A stretch of 31,527 bases of DNA from a virus, in IMG/VR virus record IMGVR_UViG_3300025540_000004. One strand, written 5' to 3'. This document shows, in pieces, positions 1 to 31,527 of this stretch. The notes below the pieces were generated by a model. It searched no databases, was not told where the DNA came from, and saw only the letters and a list, made by a program, of their open reading frames with translations. Position 1 is the first letter of the stretch, and every line of letters starts with the position of its first letter. The translations under genes were made by a program, and so were the position numbers.

Positions 1-127
1 ACCTTGCATGACAGCGATCGTCCAGCCCAAGCCTATTTCCACTGCCTATACGCTGGCCTCATTAAGGGCGTGCTTTAGCGTTTACCTATTCCGCCACTAC
101 CTCGTTTGCAACGTCATGGCAATGACC
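1..127. repeat. Terminal direct repeat, copy A. It is identical to 31401-31527 and is read as a circularisation or assembly overlap.
   Basis: I compared bases 1-127 with 31401-31527 by eye and they match exactly. Both copies sit at the extreme ends of the window. Confidence 0.9.
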
Positions 128-296
128 TGAATGGTTTTCCACGCCATTCGCATGTATTTCGGTGCGGCTCCCCGTTATACTGGATCGTGGCACGCTCTCG
201 CTCCGTTGATAAAAGACAGCTAGAGATTGACTTTTAAGCCAATCAACATGGCCAAGAGGGGGAATGTTAGGAAGGTGTCTTTACCTCATGACCATG

Positions 297-326
297 TTGA
301 CGGGCTCAAACCCGCCATGGTACAAT
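297..326 (+). promoter_or_regulatory. Plus-strand sigma-A-like promoter.
   Basis: The -35 is TTGACG (297-302). An 18-nt spacer follows. The extended -10 is TGgTACAAT (318-326). Confidence 0.5.
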
Positions 327-351
327 TTATTTGTTCAGAATTTGTTTACCT

Positions 352-390
352 GCGATAGTTGTTTGCCGACGACTATCGCTTTTGCTTTTT
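352..390 (+). terminator. Plus-strand intrinsic terminator.
   Basis: An 8-bp stem pairs gcgatagt (352-359) with actatcgc (372-379) around a 12-nt loop. It is followed by ttttgcttttt. On the minus strand no U-tract follows the stem. Confidence 0.55.
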
Positions 391-480
391 CTCTGCTTTT
401 GCTTCATCTCTCATTATTCTGTAGGATATTACCATTCCCACGGATACGACAGTCAGTAAATAAATGTCAGCAAAGTCCAT
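373..480 (-). CDS. Small hydrophobic peptide of 35 aa, MDFADIYLLTVVSVGMVISYRIMRDEAKAEKKQKR. It has a type I toxin-like architecture.
   Basis: The ATG is at 480-478, with GGGGG 7 nt upstream, and the stop TAG is at 375-373. The peptide has one predicted TM segment and a Lys-rich tail. It falls below the 60-aa cut-off of the ORF track. Confidence 0.4.
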   Translation of the reverse strand: MDFADIYLLTVVSVGMVISYRIMRDEAKAEKKQKR

Positions 481-6540: not shown

Positions 6541-6787
6541 CTCCCTTCGAGTTAAAAAGCGTTTTTATTTGCTCATCATGTCTTGTTGTTTTTTCTTTTA
6601 ATAAATCAATTTCAGCCTCATGTAGCTCCAATTGCTTGTCAGTCGTAATTTTAAAATCTTTTAAAGTGTTGTTTAGATTGTCGATTGACAACTGTAATGG
6701 ACTGATGACAATTTTTTTAAATAAAAAAATAACAATACCGCCTAAAAATGACAGTATCGTTATAAAGCTAACTATTTGTTGTAACAT
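6533..6787 (-). CDS. Lysis-cassette membrane protein with an N-terminal TM segment and a coiled coil. It occupies the position of XhlA.
   Basis: The ATG at 6787 has the SD GGAGGTG upstream. The TM segment is IVSFITILSFLGGIVIFLF. The gene overlaps the holin start. Confidence 0.65.
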   Translation of the reverse strand: MLQQIVSFITILSFLGGIVIFLFKKIVISPLQLSIDNLNNTLKDFKITTDKQLELHEAEIDLLKEKTTRHDEQIKTLFNSKGGV

Positions 6788-6799
6788 ATGATCACCTCC

Positions 6800-6834
6800 T
6801 AAATAAAAAGTGTCCATACATTGTGGACACTTTT
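6800..6834 (-). terminator. Intrinsic terminator between the tail fibre gene and the lysis cassette.
   Basis: The stem pairs aaaagtgtcca (6806-6816) with tggacactttt (6824-6834). On the minus strand it is followed by TATTT. Confidence 0.7.
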
Positions 6835-6877: not shown

Positions 6878-9331
6878 TTATGAAATAGGCAAAGTCAAGA
6901 TAGCAGGTTTTCCATTTTTAGAAATAAAGTATTGTTTGCCATTACTATCAATCGGTTGCGGTGATGGTGTTTGGATCATTGTGTCTTTCCAAGTAACCAC
7001 ATCAAGCACACCCTCGTCTACCTTTTGTCTAGCGTATGCTATTACCGCTTCAAAGTCCTCTACTGTGTTTGACCATTGATTTGGAGCAGGTGTTTCAATG
7101 ATATGCCATGCAAAAGAAAACTCTTCCTTTTTTGCAATTACATTGTCAATCCATCCTTGCATCGTTGCCACTGAATCGGTGCTATATGGACTTAAGTACT
7201 GTTGATATCTAGGGTGTGATTGTGGAAACTCCATAGAAGGTGTAACCCTATTATCGCCACCGTAATTATAATTTCGGCAACATACCAAGTATTCCCTCGC
7301 TATCCTATCTACTGTATCAGACCATGAGCCTTGCGGCGCTACGATGCATTTAGAACCAAAATGAAATCCTCTTTCAAACAAGATCCTTGATGATGTTTCA
7401 ATTTCTTCTCGTATTTCAACTTCGCTCAATGTGGCTAAGCTTCTTTGGGTATGACCGTGACTGACCACTAACCATCCCGCATTGTGCATTTCCCTTAACA
7501 TTCGCCACGTTACGTATCCTTCTTTGCCAATGTCATTTGTTGGACAAGCAATCGTACCAACGAAGCCGTACTTTTCCATAATTGGAAATGCGTTTTCGTA
7601 CTGCCCAATTGTCGCATCATCAAAATAAAAACTAATAGCACCTTTTTGTAATGAGCCTGTCTCCATTTTCGCAAGGTTAACTTTTATACTTGTACCATCT
7701 ACACTTCGAACAAACACTCTGAAATATCTAATCTTTGTCCAATCTGGTGTACCTTGTGCGGAAACGAATTTTCTCTTTGGAATACGCAAAAATCTCCAGC
7801 CGTTCTCCTTCACTAGCTTTAGATCATTAGCTGCATAGTAATATGAAAAACGATTTAACAAGTCACTTCCTGTCAATAAATCAATTTGTAAATTGTTTAA
7901 ATTGTTTATATCATCCACGTGTAGATGAATGTCAATAAAATCTTTGTTGGAAAAGTCTAATATACTCCCCATGTCGTAATACACGTAAGCATCTGTCGCA
8001 TTGATAGACGTCAATAAAACTGTTGGTTTTTGATTATATCGAACAATTACATCTGTTGATGCATTCACTTTAATATAAGCTTCTTGATGATTCTCGAACA
8101 CTTTCATTGTTTTTAGATTTGAATCGTATTTATTTCGATTAACAGGTAATCGATTAATTTCTTCGAATGTTTTCTCATGAAGAGTGTCTATTTTGGTTTT
8201 TACTTCTAAAATATCGCTTTTGTTTGCTTTGTAATTAAAAAAGCCTTTTTCTATTTTTGACGATTTTTCATCGTAATCTACCCATTTATCCGGTAAAGAT
8301 TCAATGAACTCATTTACGGCATCAAGTGCAGGCTCATTTCCTACGCCAAATATCTTGGTTAAATCCAACAGAACTAATCTATCTGCTTGTATTGTCCTTC
8401 CGTTTGATGATTCGCTGTCGCTATATATCGCTCTTATTTCAACTGATAAACTATCTGATTCACCATCAACAATAGGAAGTTCTACAATATCATTGAGTAG
8501 ATAATTTTTACCTACTACTGGAAAATAAATTCTTCGTTCTACTACTTCCGTACTCTCGTCAATACCTGTTTTATAGAGTGCAATACCCATGCTATTAAGA
8601 TTATGATTAGTTTGCATATTTAATCTTAAATATATCTTGTGTTTTGGAAGATAACCTCCACCAACATCTTGTTTAACTCTCGTAACGTTATAAGTTCCAT
8701 TTCCCATCATAATTAGTGTGCCATCAAATGTTAAATCAGAATTAAACGCTGTCCAGTTTGAATCGTTAATGAAATTGCCGTTTTTAACGAGATTATTAAA
8801 ACCACTTCCTCCTTGATGCTTTATTTTTCGTATATTATCTCCTAAGGAGTTTTCTCCATCTCTTGCATCAATAATCTCTTGAGCAGATACACTTTCTGCA
8901 GGAGTAGTTATAATTTTACTGATTCTTTCATTAACTGAAATAAGTTCAGATTGACTTGCTTTATCGTATTGTAAAGCATTCATTTTATCGCTTATTGTTG
9001 CAACTTCGGACGTGTTCTGTGCCAACTGCGCATCAACTGAATCAAATCTTTTACCTATTGTTGTATATGATTGTCCATCGTAGCCGGACACTCTGGCATC
9101 AACGACCTCGGCAACATTTGGATTTTCGAGTGACATGTTTGCAATCTGCTCATCATATTTTTTCTCTAGGCTTGTTTGTTTTGTTTCAGTCTCTTGACTT
9201 CTTACATCCGCATCATTCGCTATACTTCCTGCAGCTTCAATTCCACTTGCCAACGCTTCACGTACTTCTCTTCCATATACTTTAGTCCTTATATCATTTG
9301 CCAGTTTCTTTATTGATTCCGGTATTGTCAT
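6878..9331 (-). CDS. Tail fibre or receptor-binding protein of 817 aa with a C-terminal polysaccharide-deacetylase-like (NodB/CE4) domain.
   Basis: - The N-terminus DIRTKVYGREVREALASGIEAAG and the repeats VVDAR..G..Y.TIGKRFD and IIDARDGENSLGDNIR are typical of phage fibres.
- A CBM-like segment reads NLVKNGNF..W.
- The C-terminus carries FYFDDAT and VVSHGHTQ, which resemble NodB motifs. Confidence 0.85.
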   Translation of the reverse strand: MTIPESIKKLANDIRTKVYGREVREALASGIEAAGSIANDADVRSQETETKQTSLEKKYDEQIANMSLENPNVAEVVDARVSGYDGQSYTTIGKRFDSVDAQLAQNTSEVATISDKMNALQYDKASQSELISVNERISKIITTPAESVSAQEIIDARDGENSLGDNIRKIKHQGGSGFNNLVKNGNFINDSNWTAFNSDLTFDGTLIMMGNGTYNVTRVKQDVGGGYLPKHKIYLRLNMQTNHNLNSMGIALYKTGIDESTEVVERRIYFPVVGKNYLLNDIVELPIVDGESDSLSVEIRAIYSDSESSNGRTIQADRLVLLDLTKIFGVGNEPALDAVNEFIESLPDKWVDYDEKSSKIEKGFFNYKANKSDILEVKTKIDTLHEKTFEEINRLPVNRNKYDSNLKTMKVFENHQEAYIKVNASTDVIVRYNQKPTVLLTSINATDAYVYYDMGSILDFSNKDFIDIHLHVDDINNLNNLQIDLLTGSDLLNRFSYYYAANDLKLVKENGWRFLRIPKRKFVSAQGTPDWTKIRYFRVFVRSVDGTSIKVNLAKMETGSLQKGAISFYFDDATIGQYENAFPIMEKYGFVGTIACPTNDIGKEGYVTWRMLREMHNAGWLVVSHGHTQRSLATLSEVEIREEIETSSRILFERGFHFGSKCIVAPQGSWSDTVDRIAREYLVCCRNYNYGGDNRVTPSMEFPQSHPRYQQYLSPYSTDSVATMQGWIDNVIAKKEEFSFAWHIIETPAPNQWSNTVEDFEAVIAYARQKVDEGVLDVVTWKDTMIQTPSPQPIDSNGKQYFISKNGKPAILTLPIS

Positions 9332-29269: not shown

Positions 29270-30216
29270 TATTTGACCTCCTTAATTGCAAATTTGCGCA
29301 TAGAAATTTCTTTTAAAACTTGCTTGTAAATATCCGGGAACTTCTCTTTCAAAGCCTTGGAATCGACTCTCTGTTGCGTTTGATTTTTCCAAGTAACTAT
29401 GAAATTATCAACAATCCCTTTCTCAGCCTCTTTTAATTCAGCTTTGATTTTATTTTCAATTTCCGTTTTAGCTTTTTTGATTAAATCTGCGTCCTGTTTG
29501 ATTTGTTCATATTGGTAGATAAGGTCTTTATATTCACTTGGGAGCACAATTTCTTTATCTTTCTCAGCTACTGCATACTTTTCTTTTAAGTACTGTTCAG
29601 CTGCACTGGACCCATCTAAGTTAGGAGCAATCCCTTGTTCAACATTCACAGTCCAAAAATTCTTTTCGGCTTCAAAAATCATGTTGATCAGTTCTTCATC
29701 ACGTTCGATTTCTTTCCATATGAAGCGATTTCCACCGATTAATACAGCGATATAACCTTTCTCTTTACCAGTTACTCCTAGATAATGTTGAACTTGGACT
29801 AAATATGTTGCTGGGACTTCATCTGCTTCCCATTCTTTAGAAAGATATGCACTAGCTGTTTTACACTCGAGAACAGCAGATTCACCAACAACCATTCGGT
29901 CCACATTCGCGCGGATAAACGGATATTCTGGATGACTAAACATGAAATTTGCTCTTCTTACCTTTTTATCCGTTCTCTTTTCAAACTCTTTGGCCACAAC
30001 ATCTTCCATTTGATTACCCCAATAAATTGCTTCACTATCAATCTCTTGAGGTTCAACTTGTCCAGTTTTTTCGAGCCATAATTCAAATGCAGTTTTGTAT
30101 TTGTTTAACCCAAGGATGACACCAGCGTCACTTCCACCGATACCTTTGGTCCGTTCTTGAAGCCATTCAAAACGACTCATATTGATCGTATGGATAGCAT
30201 TTTGATTCATTGCCAT
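29269..30216 (-). CDS. YqaJ-type viral recombinase exonuclease.
   Basis: The motif EWLQERTKGIGGSDAGVILGLNKYKTAFELW is present, with PD-(D/E)XK-like motifs. The gene overlaps recT (TAATG). Confidence 0.95.
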   Translation of the reverse strand: MAMNQNAIHTINMSRFEWLQERTKGIGGSDAGVILGLNKYKTAFELWLEKTGQVEPQEIDSEAIYWGNQMEDVVAKEFEKRTDKKVRRANFMFSHPEYPFIRANVDRMVVGESAVLECKTASAYLSKEWEADEVPATYLVQVQHYLGVTGKEKGYIAVLIGGNRFIWKEIERDEELINMIFEAEKNFWTVNVEQGIAPNLDGSSAAEQYLKEKYAVAEKDKEIVLPSEYKDLIYQYEQIKQDADLIKKAKTEIENKIKAELKEAEKGIVDNFIVTWKNQTQQRVDSKALKEKFPDIYKQVLKEISMRKFAIKEVK

Positions 30217-30230
30217 GTATTTTATCCTCC

Positions 30231-30259
30231 TTTACCAAATTAAACTGACGTGTTATAAT
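30231..30259 (+). promoter_or_regulatory. Plus-strand promoter-like element.
   Basis: The -35 is TTTACC (30231-30236), the spacer is 17 nt and the extended -10 is TGtTATAAT (30251-30259). Confidence 0.4.
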
Positions 30260-30288
30260 TGAATCAAATTTAATATTCTTGAGACCGT

Positions 30289-30322
30289 AACTCCCGTTAT
30301 TGCCTGGCGGGAGTTTTATTTT
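30289..30322 (+). terminator. Hairpin with a plus-strand U-tract. It lies directly after the stop of the minus-strand ORF 30316..30540.
   Basis: An 8-bp stem pairs aactcccg (30289-30296) with cgggagtt (30308-30315). On the plus strand ttatttt follows. On the minus strand no U-tract follows. Confidence 0.45.
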
Positions 30323-30540
30323 GCAATTTTTTCTATAGCCCCAAGATGTAAAAGAAACTTCTTTAAATCATAGGAAATATCATCTAACCGAAAAACATCA
30401 TCTTCCCATTCCAAATACTCATCACCCGGCATAATTTCGTTCCCAAAGAAATCATCACAAAATGGTTCGTCGTTAACTGGCTCTGGATAGCCAGTCTGTA
30501 AAGTGCGTGTGATTCGTGGATCTTGAATGTCAATCGCCAT
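30316..30540 (-). CDS. Hypothetical acidic protein, 74 aa.
   Basis: This is an ORF-track ORF with the SD GGAGGTG upstream. Confidence 0.6.
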   Translation of the reverse strand: MAIDIQDPRITRTLQTGYPEPVNDEPFCDDFFGNEIMPGDEYLEWEDDVFRLDDISYDLKKFLLHLGAIEKIAK

Positions 30541-31027: not shown

Positions 31028-31354
31028 TCAATCTAAATAAGTTTTTAATAACTCAACTAAAAGTTTGTTTTGCTTTTCTAATTTTTTCATCCTTTTGTAG
31101 TTAAACCGATATCCATCAAAACGTTCTTCAATTTTTCTTAATTCGTTTTGGTAATATTCGGTTAATGCTCTAATTGACGATTTTTTAACAGTATCAACTT
31201 TCACTGGTCCAACAAAGCCTCTAGTACCGGTTAATAAGTCGATACCTATATATCCATCATCTTTTTTTAAATTCATGGCTTTGTTTTGATTCCAGTACAC
31301 AATCCCAATTTCTCCTTCATATTCAACTAATTCACCGACTTCATAAGTGTTCAC
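31028..31354 (-). CDS. Hypothetical protein of 108 aa. It is the first gene after the GC-rich island.
   Basis: The start is GTG at 31354, with the SD AAGGGGTG upstream. An in-frame TAG lies 18 nt upstream, so the ORF cannot extend further. Confidence 0.65.
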   Translation of the reverse strand: MNTYEVGELVEYEGEIGIVYWNQNKAMNLKKDDGYIGIDLLTGTRGFVGPVKVDTVKKSSIRALTEYYQNELRKIEERFDGYRFNYKRMKKLEKQNKLLVELLKTYLD

Positions 31355-31400
31355 ATTTTCACCCCTTTCCTAAGTGGTAATGAGGTAGGCAAGGATTTGC

Positions 31401-31527
31401 ACCTTGCATGACAGCGATCGTCCAGCCCAAGCCTATTTCCACTGCCTATACGCTGGCCTCATTAAGGGCGTGCTTTAGCGTTTACCTATTCCGCCACTAC
31501 CTCGTTTGCAACGTCATGGCAATGACC
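31401..31527. repeat. Terminal direct repeat, copy B.
   Basis: Exact 127-nt match to bases 1-127. Confidence 0.9.

Follow-up and report, generated by a model that had tools for sequence, protein, structure and literature searches.

A tRNA-like element of a large phage family and an adjoining conserved non-coding module in a GC-rich, gene-free island of a circular viral genome

In this work, we describe a GC-rich, gene-free stretch in the viral record IMGVR_UViG_3300025540_000004, analyzed over its whole length of 31,527 nucleotides (hereafter the window). The stretch precedes the yqaI/yqaJ/recT genes of the leftward array and lies in the middle of an operon, with the cI/cro region between it and a serine integrase gene located 3 kb away. 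The window is a circle with a 127-nt overlap, so that the stretch legitimately continues from position 1 into 31355-31400. Its features are collected in Table 1; relatives compared with it are denoted by locus number (L027, L254 and so on).

Table 1. Coordinates of the features identified in and around the island
Feature	Position	Strand	Description
GC-rich island	1-330		50% G+C
Terminal overlap	1-127 and 31401-31527		Identical
tRNA-like element, 5' and middle part	1..103	-	Read 103->1
Acceptor stem, 5' strand	103-97	-	GAGGUAG
U8 G9	96-95	-	UG
D-arm	94-78	-	GCGG AAUAGGUAAA CGC, 3-bp stem
Insert	77-8	-	70 nt, in place of the anticodon and variable arms
T-arm	7-1 plus 31400-31389	-	19 nt, GCAAGG UGCAAAU CCUUGC, preceded by CAU
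tRNA-like element, 3' part	31381..31400	-	Read 31400->31381; whole element 123 nt
Acceptor stem, 3' strand	31388-31382	-	CUACCUC
Discriminator	31381	-	A, followed by UUA, no encoded CCA
5' module	104..316	-	213 nt, 50% G+C, conserved, non-coding; long hairpin 299-284 with 259-244, hairpins 149-129 and 126-113
Promoter-like site	297..326	+	TTGACG, 18 nt, TACAAT with a TG extension; overlaps the start of the 5' module
Intrinsic-terminator-like hairpin	352..389	+	With T-run; ends a predicted ~58-nt antisense RNA overlapping the last codons of the small ORF
Small ORF	373..480	-	35 aa, hydrophobic with a basic tail (MDFADIYLLTVVSVGMVISYRIMRDEAKAEKKQKR); neighbour of the island, not part of the RNA
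Consensus promoter	1823-1795	-	12 of 12 matches

The island had first been noticed in a sequence-only reading, and the observation itself is confirmed. Bases 1-300 are 0.500 G+C, while the next-highest 300-nt bin is 0.433, and a 330-nt window slid along the circle peaks at 0.509 at position 31391, against a mean of 0.365 and a standard deviation of 0.035. Only short ORFs without conservation lie in 1-372, the gene caller of the source assembly (ENA ERZ764866 NODE_224) left the same 528 nt uncalled, and homologues differ by indels of 1, 2 and 28 nt. The folding energy is only modestly below that of shuffled sequences, with z = -2.1 for the whole island, -2.8 for the 5' part and -2.1 for the tRNA-like part.

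All the helices proposed in that reading exist, but they are not equally supported. What had been described as a 10-bp long-range helix contains the 7-bp acceptor stem, 31382-31388 with 97-103, the 3 additional pairs being local to this sequence, while the hairpin 31389-31394 with 2-7 is the T-stem; both show strong covariation. The hairpin 129-134 with 144-149 has two compensatory pairs in L027. In contrast, 113-117 with 122-126, 205-247 and 291-321 are present but invariant or not conserved, and the last coincides with the spacer of the plus-strand promoter-like site. The consensus promoter at 1823-1795 on the minus strand was likewise confirmed. Two claims were not: the island is not a single unit of about 380 nt, and the several intrinsic terminators said to punctuate the downstream array do not hold for its proximal part, since no minus-strand terminator-like site lies between 31400 and 24000, nor in 1-2000. 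No minus-strand promoter for the island was found, and no iterons or origin-like repeat structure were detected in 1-520.

Conventional searches did not identify the island. Rfam 15 gave no match at gathering score over the whole window, and only chance-level hits at E<=10 over 1-600 and 31250-31527; RF00005 was absent even at this threshold. ARAGORN found no gene in the window, and a BLAST search of bases 1-480 against 50,697 phage records returned no match, the whole phage having almost no relatives in that set. Searching genome contigs with the upstream 111-aa ORF retrieved no relatives, and the downstream 108-aa ORF retrieved one (L120), which lacks the island.

A 19-mer taken from the T-arm, however, hits at least 119 viral contigs, and variant T-stems hit at least 120 more. 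Among these, 181 unique elements parse as acceptor, UG, D-arm, insert, T-arm and acceptor, with 90 different acceptor 5' strands. The family, which has more than 230 distinct members in hundreds of phages of Bacillus, Listeria and Enterococcus, is characterized by a 7-bp acceptor helix of variable sequence, U8 G9 followed by a D-arm GYG-GAAUAGGUARA-CRC with a 3-bp stem, and a 6-bp T-stem with the loop UGCAAAU, preceded by (C)AU and followed directly by the 3' strand of the acceptor. The window element has each of these features. In an alignment of 56 members excluding this locus, 98.8% of cells pair, and 12 of 16 pairs, including all 7 of the acceptor, show changes on both sides; the covariation score is 0.639, against 0.17 in shuffles and at most 0.11 in slid controls. 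When only the D-arm motif and the T-loop were used as anchors, 141 of 158 elements (89%) had at least 6 of 7 acceptor pairs, against 11% in the permuted control.

A covariance model built from 56 other members (model R1) matches the window at 31503->31381, the same bases in the duplicated end, with 76.3 bits and an E-value of 2.5e-18, over its full length (model positions 1-114), while the next non-overlapping hit in the window scores 9.6 bits. In a set of 100 loci, R1 found 99 matches, and none in the 12 control loci within that set. The family is unannotated and absent from Rfam 15, and literature searches on tRNA-like RNAs of phages, ROOL/GOLLD, rliG, SPP1 and tRNA scaffolds, as well as on its sequence strings, found no prior description, although most subscription journals lay outside their reach and an earlier report cannot be excluded.

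Several properties relate the family to tRNA-Leu, or to tRNAs more generally. The same D-arm occurs in canonical phage tRNA-Leu genes, which have UUCxAxU loops and 31-34 nt between the arms; with the D-arm as the only anchor, 37 of 60 elements have the UGCAAAU loop, 9 have near variants and 13 are true tRNA-Leu genes. Of the 181 elements, 46 lie within 500 nt of true tRNAs on the same strand, often 2-9 nt away, arrays of 2-3 copies occur, and one element sits inside the annotated tRNA island of Enterococcus phage phiSHEF16. Only 3 of 227 elements encode CCA, N74 is U in 58% and N73 is A in 62%, which fits the CCA-less tRNA precursors that are the RNase Z substrates of B. subtilis (PMC1874595).

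The inserts range from 0 to 250 nt and are exchangeable. The acceptor GAGGUAG/CUACCUC carries three unrelated inserts in the window, L254 and L342, and the L342 insert recurs in L032 on another acceptor. The idea that the insert is closed by a helix resembling an anticodon stem was rejected, as no conserved closing helix next to the D- and T-arms was enriched over the control. A search for antisense targets of the island RNA within this genome gave only chance-level 10-12-mers, so that the notion of a payload rests only on the recurrence and exchange of insert types.

The position of the window element is atypical, most members lying between a RinA-like late activator and terminase. L344 carries a deleted copy and L120 has none, indicating that the element is dispensable in some relatives.

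The upstream 213 nt form a separate conserved module of narrow distribution. The whole stretch from the hairpin at 379 to 31381 is 95-100% identical in L027, while the flanking genes are about 76% identical. Five variants of the module are known, one of which lacks the tRNA-like element, with indels that are not multiples of three; a 16-mer from the module gave 12 hits in viral contigs, 11 of them by chance. A U.U mismatch in the long hairpin becomes G.U and then G-C among the variants. The predicted structure rests, however, on five close variants, too few and too similar for RNAalifold, whose consensus changed with the sequence set. L343, L347 and L348 have the module without the tRNA-like element, L254 has both without the small ORF and the antisense unit, and hundreds of phages have the tRNA-like element alone.

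Opposite the small ORF lies a predicted antisense unit. Its promoter-like site is kept, with a perfect TATAAT, in L027, L342 and L343, where the terminator-like sequence is identical, and is lost in L254 and L344, which also lack the small ORF. The ORF is conserved as a protein in L027, with conservative substitutions, but has no Pfam and no toxin-family match. A small hydrophobic peptide gene with a convergent, overlapping antisense RNA that has its own promoter and terminator is the arrangement of type I toxin-antitoxin systems; here, ORF, promoter and terminator, known from sequence alone, are gained and lost together across variants.

The interpretation we favor, with a probability of about 0.6, is that the island is a composite, whose downstream 123 nt are a tRNA-Leu-derived, tRNA-shaped non-coding RNA, keeping the parts of a tRNA that build the L-shape and the acceptor/T-arm minihelix, while an exchangeable structured insert replaces the anticodon and variable arms. 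In this view, the element would be transcribed inside the leftward early transcript from the promoter at 1823-1795, RNase P would cut between C104 and G103, RNase Z would cut after the discriminator, and CCA would then be added. This would release a stable RNA of about 126 nt, whose tRNA frame protects and presents the insert, and would also sever the regulator part of the early transcript, now ending in the structured 5' module, from the recombination and replication genes. Family membership, structure, covariation, distribution and modularity follow from the sequence comparisons, whereas transcription, processing by RNase P and RNase Z, CCA addition, stability and any function in trans are inferred. 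In particular, since the coaxial acceptor/T arm has 13 rather than 12 bp and position 55 is G, recognition by RNase P, RNase Z and the CCA enzyme is assumed; support is indirect and comes from the elbow nucleotides, the minihelix, the close spacing from true tRNAs and the lack of encoded CCA.

A further possibility, held only tentatively, is that phages of Bacilli carry a previously unrecognized, widespread class of tRNA-Leu-derived scaffold RNAs, in which a conserved tRNA top half recruits the tRNA maturation machinery of the host to excise, cap with CCA and stabilize an exchangeable structured cargo. Cargos would be shuffled between phages by recombination at the invariant D- and T-arms, and either the cargos or the uncommon G55/13-bp frame itself might act in host takeover or counter-defence. 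This would be a natural counterpart of the engineered tRNA scaffold used to express RNA aptamers, a laboratory design in which an RNA placed in the anticodon position of a tRNA frame gains correct processing and stability. The T4 tRNA cluster also encodes two stable RNAs of unknown function, C and D, which are processed with the tRNAs.

Compared with canonical class II tRNA-Leu genes of phages and Bacilli, the family shares the 7-bp acceptor, U8, the D-arm sequence (GCGG AAUAGGUAGA CGC) including A14, G18 and G19, the T-loop positions U54, C56 and A58, the G53-C61 pair, a location in tRNA islands, mostly A73, and the absence of encoded CCA, as in a third of B. subtilis tRNAs (PMC1874595). It differs in having no anticodon arm, which in a canonical tRNA is a 5-bp stem with a 7-nt loop containing U33 between the D- and T-arms, and no regular variable arm, in the insert, in G55 instead of U, in the 6-bp T-stem giving 13 stacked pairs, and in not being detected by ARAGORN or RF00005. 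Bacterial Y RNAs (YrlA, Yrn1) are also non-coding RNAs keeping the D- and T-arm tertiary contacts, are recognized by tRNA enzymes, RNase P and the CCA enzyme, and are found in phages (PMC4201824); in YrlA, however, the order is T-arm, closed acceptor hairpin and D-arm, with the RNA ends in a Ro60-binding stem, while here the order is that of a tRNA, with open acceptor ends, no conserved Ro-binding helix and no Rfam match. tmRNA similarly has a tRNA top half, acceptor plus T-arm, with a large functional insertion between the two halves, is processed like a tRNA and is also carried by phages, but lacks a true D-arm and has alanine identity, pseudoknots and a tag reading frame; neither ARAGORN nor RF00023 finds it here.

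An alternative, which we consider unlikely, is that the element acts only as RNA punctuation, a cis-acting processing signal cutting the polycistronic transcript and defining the 3' end of an upstream structured RNA, with no function for the released RNA and its insert. Plant mitochondrial t-elements and the MALAT1-mascRNA junction are precedents, being tRNA-shaped modules embedded in longer transcripts, where RNase P and RNase Z cuts define the ends of the neighbours, although they are eukaryotic or organellar and mascRNA is a small cloverleaf with an anticodon-like arm. Consistently, ROOL ends about 12 nt before the element in L023, rliG about 30 nt before it in L062, rli62 lies just upstream in L044, and in the window the 5' module ends at the predicted RNase P site. 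A 60-nt member with no insert exists (L011), and members sit at operon junctions, before terminase and between genes 9/10 and 11 of SPP1 (element at 6647-6756). On the other hand, upstream and downstream non-coding gaps are symmetric (medians 118 and 116 nt), which led us to reject the idea that every member follows a larger upstream non-coding RNA; insert types are conserved and move between acceptor backgrounds, suggesting selection on the insert, and arrays and tRNA islands are not what a single cut site needs.

More doubtful is a chargeable, non-ribosomal tRNA-Leu mimic, leucylated by host LeuRS or binding another factor that reads the acceptor/elbow of tRNA, and acting as a sponge or decoy, for example against a tRNA-directed host defence, while being kept off the ribosome. 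The D-arm is identical to that of class II tRNA-Leu, A73 is present in the window as in most members, and E. coli LeuRS is not known to read the anticodon or the variable arm. G55 and the 13-bp arm are family-wide departures from translating tRNAs, and staphylococcal cell-wall tRNA-Gly species also depart at positions 18/19 and 55/56 (PMC4574755). A Tad2-like anti-Thoeris gene lies about 500 nt downstream of 42 elements, but this link may only reflect the usual accessory-gene site before terminase. Moreover, the discriminator is U, G or C in 38% of members, and no conserved partner protein was found; charging and decoy activity are conjectures from sequence alone.

The interpretation offered by the sequence-only reading is partly supported. 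It was right that the stretch is non-coding and structured, is read on the strand of the leftward genes and matches no curated RNA family, but it did not see that its long-range helix and first hairpin are the acceptor stem and T-arm of a tRNA-shaped RNA. Its proposals of one large ornate RNA of the ROOL/GOLLD type, or of a leader, antiterminator or riboswitch covering the whole island, now appear improbable. The conservation of the whole stretch in L027 would suit them, and in L343 the 5' module directly precedes the ribosome-binding site of a yqaI-like gene, as a leader would. However, no Rfam family matches, including ROOL, GOLLD, EAR and riboswitches, the modules occur apart, antitermination has no terminators to act on in the next 7 kb, and no riboswitch signature, terminator/anti-terminator alternative or conserved sequestration of the ribosome-binding site was found, the downstream genes and their ribosome-binding sites differing among the variants. 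A leader role for the 5' module alone is not excluded. ROOL and GOLLD, unexplained structured RNAs of Firmicute phages and prophages that cluster with tRNA genes (PMC5737381, PMC12286853), are 580-800 nt ornate multimer-forming folds with no tRNA shape; the precedent is apt in that family members sit in the same phage tRNA islands, and twice, in L023 and L115, in the same cluster as a ROOL RNA.

That the element is no RNA gene at all, but a decayed protein gene, a fragment of a host tRNA-Leu gene, an attachment site or a DNA-level recombination hotspot, is very unlikely: although the conserved D- and T-arm sequences could serve as short homologies for swapping inserts and a serine integrase lies nearby, compensatory changes occur in all three helices, with G.U pairs on one strand only, the loop and T-stem differ from those of real tRNA-Leu genes, the element lies mid-operon in a circular genome, away from the integrase, and homologues carry frameshifting indels.

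For this window, the analysis replaces a single RNA of about 380 nt with three separable elements. If the family is what it appears to be, it adds a large class to the small list of tRNA mimics, present in model phages such as SPP1, in Listeria A118-like, P70-like and A511-like phages and in Enterococcus Schiekvirus, and a covariance model like R1 would label hundreds of currently blank regions. It would help to explain some GC-rich empty gaps in phage genomes and tRNA islands, would give a concrete neighbour to the still unexplained ROOL RNA, and may bear on the Listeria sRNA rliG, which is expressed in lysogeny and has no known function (PMC7397523). It would also suggest how phages express stable small RNAs from inside operons, without promoters or terminators of their own.

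The window proved to be a circular assembly whose first bases are repeated at its end, and corresponds to a 31.4-kb metagenomic contig (ENA ERZ764866 NODE_224). Its genes, which include a serine integrase, cI/cro-like HTH genes, YqaI, YqaJ and RecT, mark it as a temperate siphovirus of the Bacillaceae "skin/yqa" type. The observation made in the sequence-only reading, that a GC-rich, ORF-free and helix-dense island lies at the head of the leftward genes, holds: bases 1-300 are 50.0% G+C, while no other 300-nt bin exceeds 43.3%, and the maximum of a 330-nt window (0.509) lies exactly on the island, about 4 sd above the mean. No credible ORF was found between 372 and 31355 on the circle, and the gene caller of the source assembly left the same 528 nt empty. 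All the helices listed in that reading are present, and the consensus promoter it had placed upstream is confirmed. Folding energies, however, are only about 2-3 sd below those of shuffled sequences, so that thermodynamics alone would not have made the case. The coordinates of the features discussed here are collected in the following table.

Coordinates of the features identified in the window and in related loci
Feature	Sequence	Coordinates	Strand	Remarks
Terminal duplication	window	1-127, repeated at 31401-31527		circular assembly
tRNA-like element	window	103->1 plus 31400->31381	minus	covariance model match at 31503->31381
Predicted RNase P cut	window	C104/G103	minus	inferred
Predicted RNase Z cut	window	after A31381	minus	inferred
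5' module	window	316->104	minus	213 nt
Long hairpin of the 5' module	window	299-284 with 259-244	minus	
Hairpin of the 5' module	window	129-149		
Loop-side sequence of a 5' module hairpin	window	113-126		complementary to 30207-30217 (yqaJ start-codon region)
35-aa hydrophobic ORF with a basic tail	window	373-480	minus	
Promoter facing the ORF	window	297-326	plus	TTGACG, 18 nt, TACAAT
Terminator facing the ORF	window	352-389	plus	
Consensus promoter	window	1823-1795	minus	
Second promoter-terminator pair	window	30231-30325	plus	TTTACC, 17 nt, TATAAT with a TG extension; terminator at 30289-30315
Family member in SPP1	SPP1	6647-6756		82 bits
Family member and following hairpin	L349 (SPP1)	2495-2680 (SPP1 6647-6832)		
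ROOL RNA and family member	L023	6641-7219 and about 7231-7514		
ROOL RNA and family member	L115	1831-2432 and 1069-1217		
Deletion fusing 5' module and insert	L344	about 6650-6790		compared with L254
Type II hammerhead ribozyme (RF02276)	L047	1036-1099		51.7 bits

To establish the nature of the downstream third of the island, a 19-mer taken from the first hairpin of the sequence-only reading, GCAAGGTGCAAATCCTTGC on the minus strand, was searched in IMG/VR, and was found in at least 119 contigs, where about one match is expected by chance. The flanks of these matches share one architecture, consisting of 7 nt, UG, GCGG-AAUAGGUAGA-CGC, a variable stretch, CAU, the hairpin, and 7 nt complementary to the first 7. 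This is a tRNA with its anticodon and variable arms replaced: the acceptor stem, U8, the D-arm (A14, G18, G19) and the T-arm (G53-C61, U54, C56, A58) are all in place, and the D-arm sequence is that of class II tRNA-Leu. Freeing three T-stem positions in the search pattern gave at least 120 further contigs, whose stems are perfectly complementary and varied, as in GUAAGG/CCUUAC, GUGAGG/CCUCAC, GUAGGG/CCCUAC and GUGUGG/CCACAC.

Covariation was evaluated on an alignment of 56 diverse members, from which the window and its closest relative were excluded. In this alignment 98.8% of cells pair, and 12 of 16 pairs, including all seven of the acceptor, have changes on both sides; the covariation score is 0.639, against 0.17 for shuffles and at most 0.11 when partners are slid by 1-3 columns. 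Since the parser used to collect the elements had required pairing, the test was repeated with only the D-arm motif and the T-loop as anchors: 141 of 158 unique elements have at least 6 of 7 acceptor pairs, against 11% when 3' strands are permuted among elements. A covariance model built from the 56-member alignment, R1, scores the window element 76.3 bits (E 2.5e-18) over its full length; it found 99 matches in a set of 100 loci, and none in the 12 control loci within that set. Membership is therefore established independently of the sequence itself.

Members of the family range from 60 nt, in locus L011, which has no insert, to about 284 nt, with a median of 129. The T-stem has six pairs, so the acceptor/T stack is 13 bp, and position 55 is G. 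When the D-arm alone was used as an anchor, 37 of 60 new elements have the loop UGCAAAU and 9 have near variants, while a further 13 are ordinary tRNA-Leu genes, with a UUCxAxU loop and 31-34 nt between the arms: the family evidently derives from tRNA-Leu, but is distinct from it. CCA is encoded in only 3 of 227 elements; position 74 is U in 58% and position 73 is A in 62%. ARAGORN calls none of the elements correctly, and the Rfam tRNA model does not reach its threshold on any of 35 loci scanned. Of 181 elements, 46 lie within 500 nt of true tRNA genes on the same strand, often 2-9 nt away, and some loci hold two or three copies in a row. Several insert types, in loci L005, L017, L047, L087, L182 and L342, contain an internal canonical T-arm-like hairpin (GGUUCGAAUCC or similar), which gives a tRNA-like piece nested inside the tRNA-like frame.

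In GenBank phage records, a composite D-arm plus T-arm query hits 214 records, 54 of them with both arms. Hosts include Listeria (70), Bacillus (50), Enterococcus (40), Lactobacillus, Leuconostoc, Brochothrix, Paenibacillus and Geobacillus. In every record listed the feature is unannotated, or overlapped only by a hypothetical or doubtful CDS. The high-scoring SPP1 member lies between genes 9/10 and 11, is overlapped by an old "gene 10" CDS flagged as conflicting, and is not mentioned in the 2018 re-annotation (PMC6316719); GC-rich sequence lies upstream of it, and it is followed by a second hairpin, containing a T-arm-like GGGUUCAAUUCCC and closed by ACGGAC/GUCCGU plus a U-run. Enterococcus phage phiSHEF16 carries a member inside its annotated tRNA island, and Leuconostoc phage Ln-9 carries one next to the HNH gene at the genome end.

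Clustering of neighboring ORFs shows that the usual site of these elements is the early/late junction, where RinA-like activators (DUF1492, DUF722, sigma region 4) lie 100-400 nt upstream, and TerS and TerL lie downstream. A Tad2-like (PF11195, anti-Thoeris) gene lies about 500 nt downstream of 42 elements (representative E13), across 18 different acceptor types; this may be a functional link, or may only reflect the accessory-gene slot before terminase. Other structured RNAs are found in the vicinity. ROOL RNA lies directly upstream of a family member in the viral locus L023, with a gap of about 12 nt, and in L115 the two share one same-strand cluster with true tRNAs. In Listeria phages (loci L006, L009, L024, L040 and L044), rli62 or rliG lie just upstream of the element and the Rfam mcrA motif about 100 nt downstream, three or four structured RNAs being therefore packed before the HNH and terminase genes; the rliG RNA is expressed in lysogeny and is dispensable for virion production (PMC7397523). 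A type II hammerhead ribozyme lies about 4 kb from the element in the viral contig L047.

As for the rest of the island, the window and the homologous locus L027 are about 76% identical over the flanking genes, but 95-100% identical from the hairpin at 379 through 31381. A genome scan and a metagenome scan gave more variants. L254, in Caldifermentibacillus hisashii N-11, has the 5' module with a 28-nt deletion and the same acceptor stem, but a different insert, different flanking genes and no small ORF. L342 has the module, the same acceptor and a third insert, which recurs in L032 on another acceptor. L343, L347 and L348 have the small ORF, the hairpin and the 5' module but no tRNA-like element, and a yqaI-like gene follows directly. 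L344, whose prophage context is near-identical to that of L254, has a deletion that removes half of each part, fusing the first half of the module to the second half of the tRNA-like insert, which shows that the unit can decay.

The 5' module is therefore an independent unit. It is non-coding; indels of 1, 2 and 28 nt occur among the variants. Among the five close variants at hand, too few to fix its fold or role, its hairpin at 129-149 shows two compensatory pairs, while the long one turns a U.U mismatch into G.U and then G-C, with wobble pairs forming only on the minus strand. The loop-side sequence UCAUUGCCAUG of a module hairpin is complementary to the yqaJ start-codon region over 11 nt, but this is within chance expectation for a query of this size.

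The plus-strand promoter (with TATAAT in three relatives) and terminator facing the 35-aa ORF are kept exactly where the ORF is present, and lost where it is absent: the three features are found together in the window, L027, L342 and L343, and are absent together in L254 and L344. They predict an antisense RNA of ~58 nt and, by layout only, resemble a type I toxin-antitoxin. A second plus-strand promoter, in the gap between the yqaI-like and yqaJ genes, is followed at once by a strong plus-strand terminator, and is another candidate source of a short antisense RNA inside the leftward operon.

What the sequence data demonstrate is a tRNA-shaped fold under purifying selection, with tRNA-like genomic behavior, no encoded CCA and modular inserts; expression, processing and stability are instead inferred. 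In the view proposed here, the element would be transcribed within the leftward early transcript; no minus-strand promoter or terminator lies between 1823 and the island. RNase P would cut at its 5' end, and RNase Z after the discriminator, since this enzyme acts on CCA-less precursors 3' of the discriminator and follows RNase P when leaders are long (PMC1874595); CCA would then be added. The result would be a stable RNA of ~126 nt, and a cut early transcript whose upstream half ends in the structured 5' module.

As to the role of such an RNA, we favor a stable scaffold presenting an exchangeable insert, because insert types are conserved and move between acceptor backgrounds. Against a cargo model, the inserts have no common closing helix, and no antisense target above chance was found in this genome. 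A possible alternative is that the element is purely a processing signal. A further one is a chargeable tRNA-Leu mimic or decoy, kept off the ribosome by G55 and the 13-bp arm; the non-ribosomal staphylococcal tRNA-Gly species also depart at positions 18/19 and 55/56 (PMC4574755). The interpretation offered in the sequence-only reading, of a large phage ncRNA with ROOL and GOLLD as precedents, a cis-acting leader or antitermination element, or a riboswitch-like regulator, is supported only in part: the stretch is non-coding and structured, but the element does not satisfy the criteria for ROOL/GOLLD, a riboswitch or an antiterminator, nor those for a canonical tRNA, tmRNA or YrlA (PMC4201824).

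On present evidence, the element works most like a tRNA-derived mimic, in the manner of mascRNA, t-elements or a tRNA scaffold. No description of it was found in Rfam 15 or in full-text literature searches, although these were not exhaustive and prior work cannot be ruled out. The window holds one more member of this apparently undescribed family, in an unusual position and fused to a rare second module.
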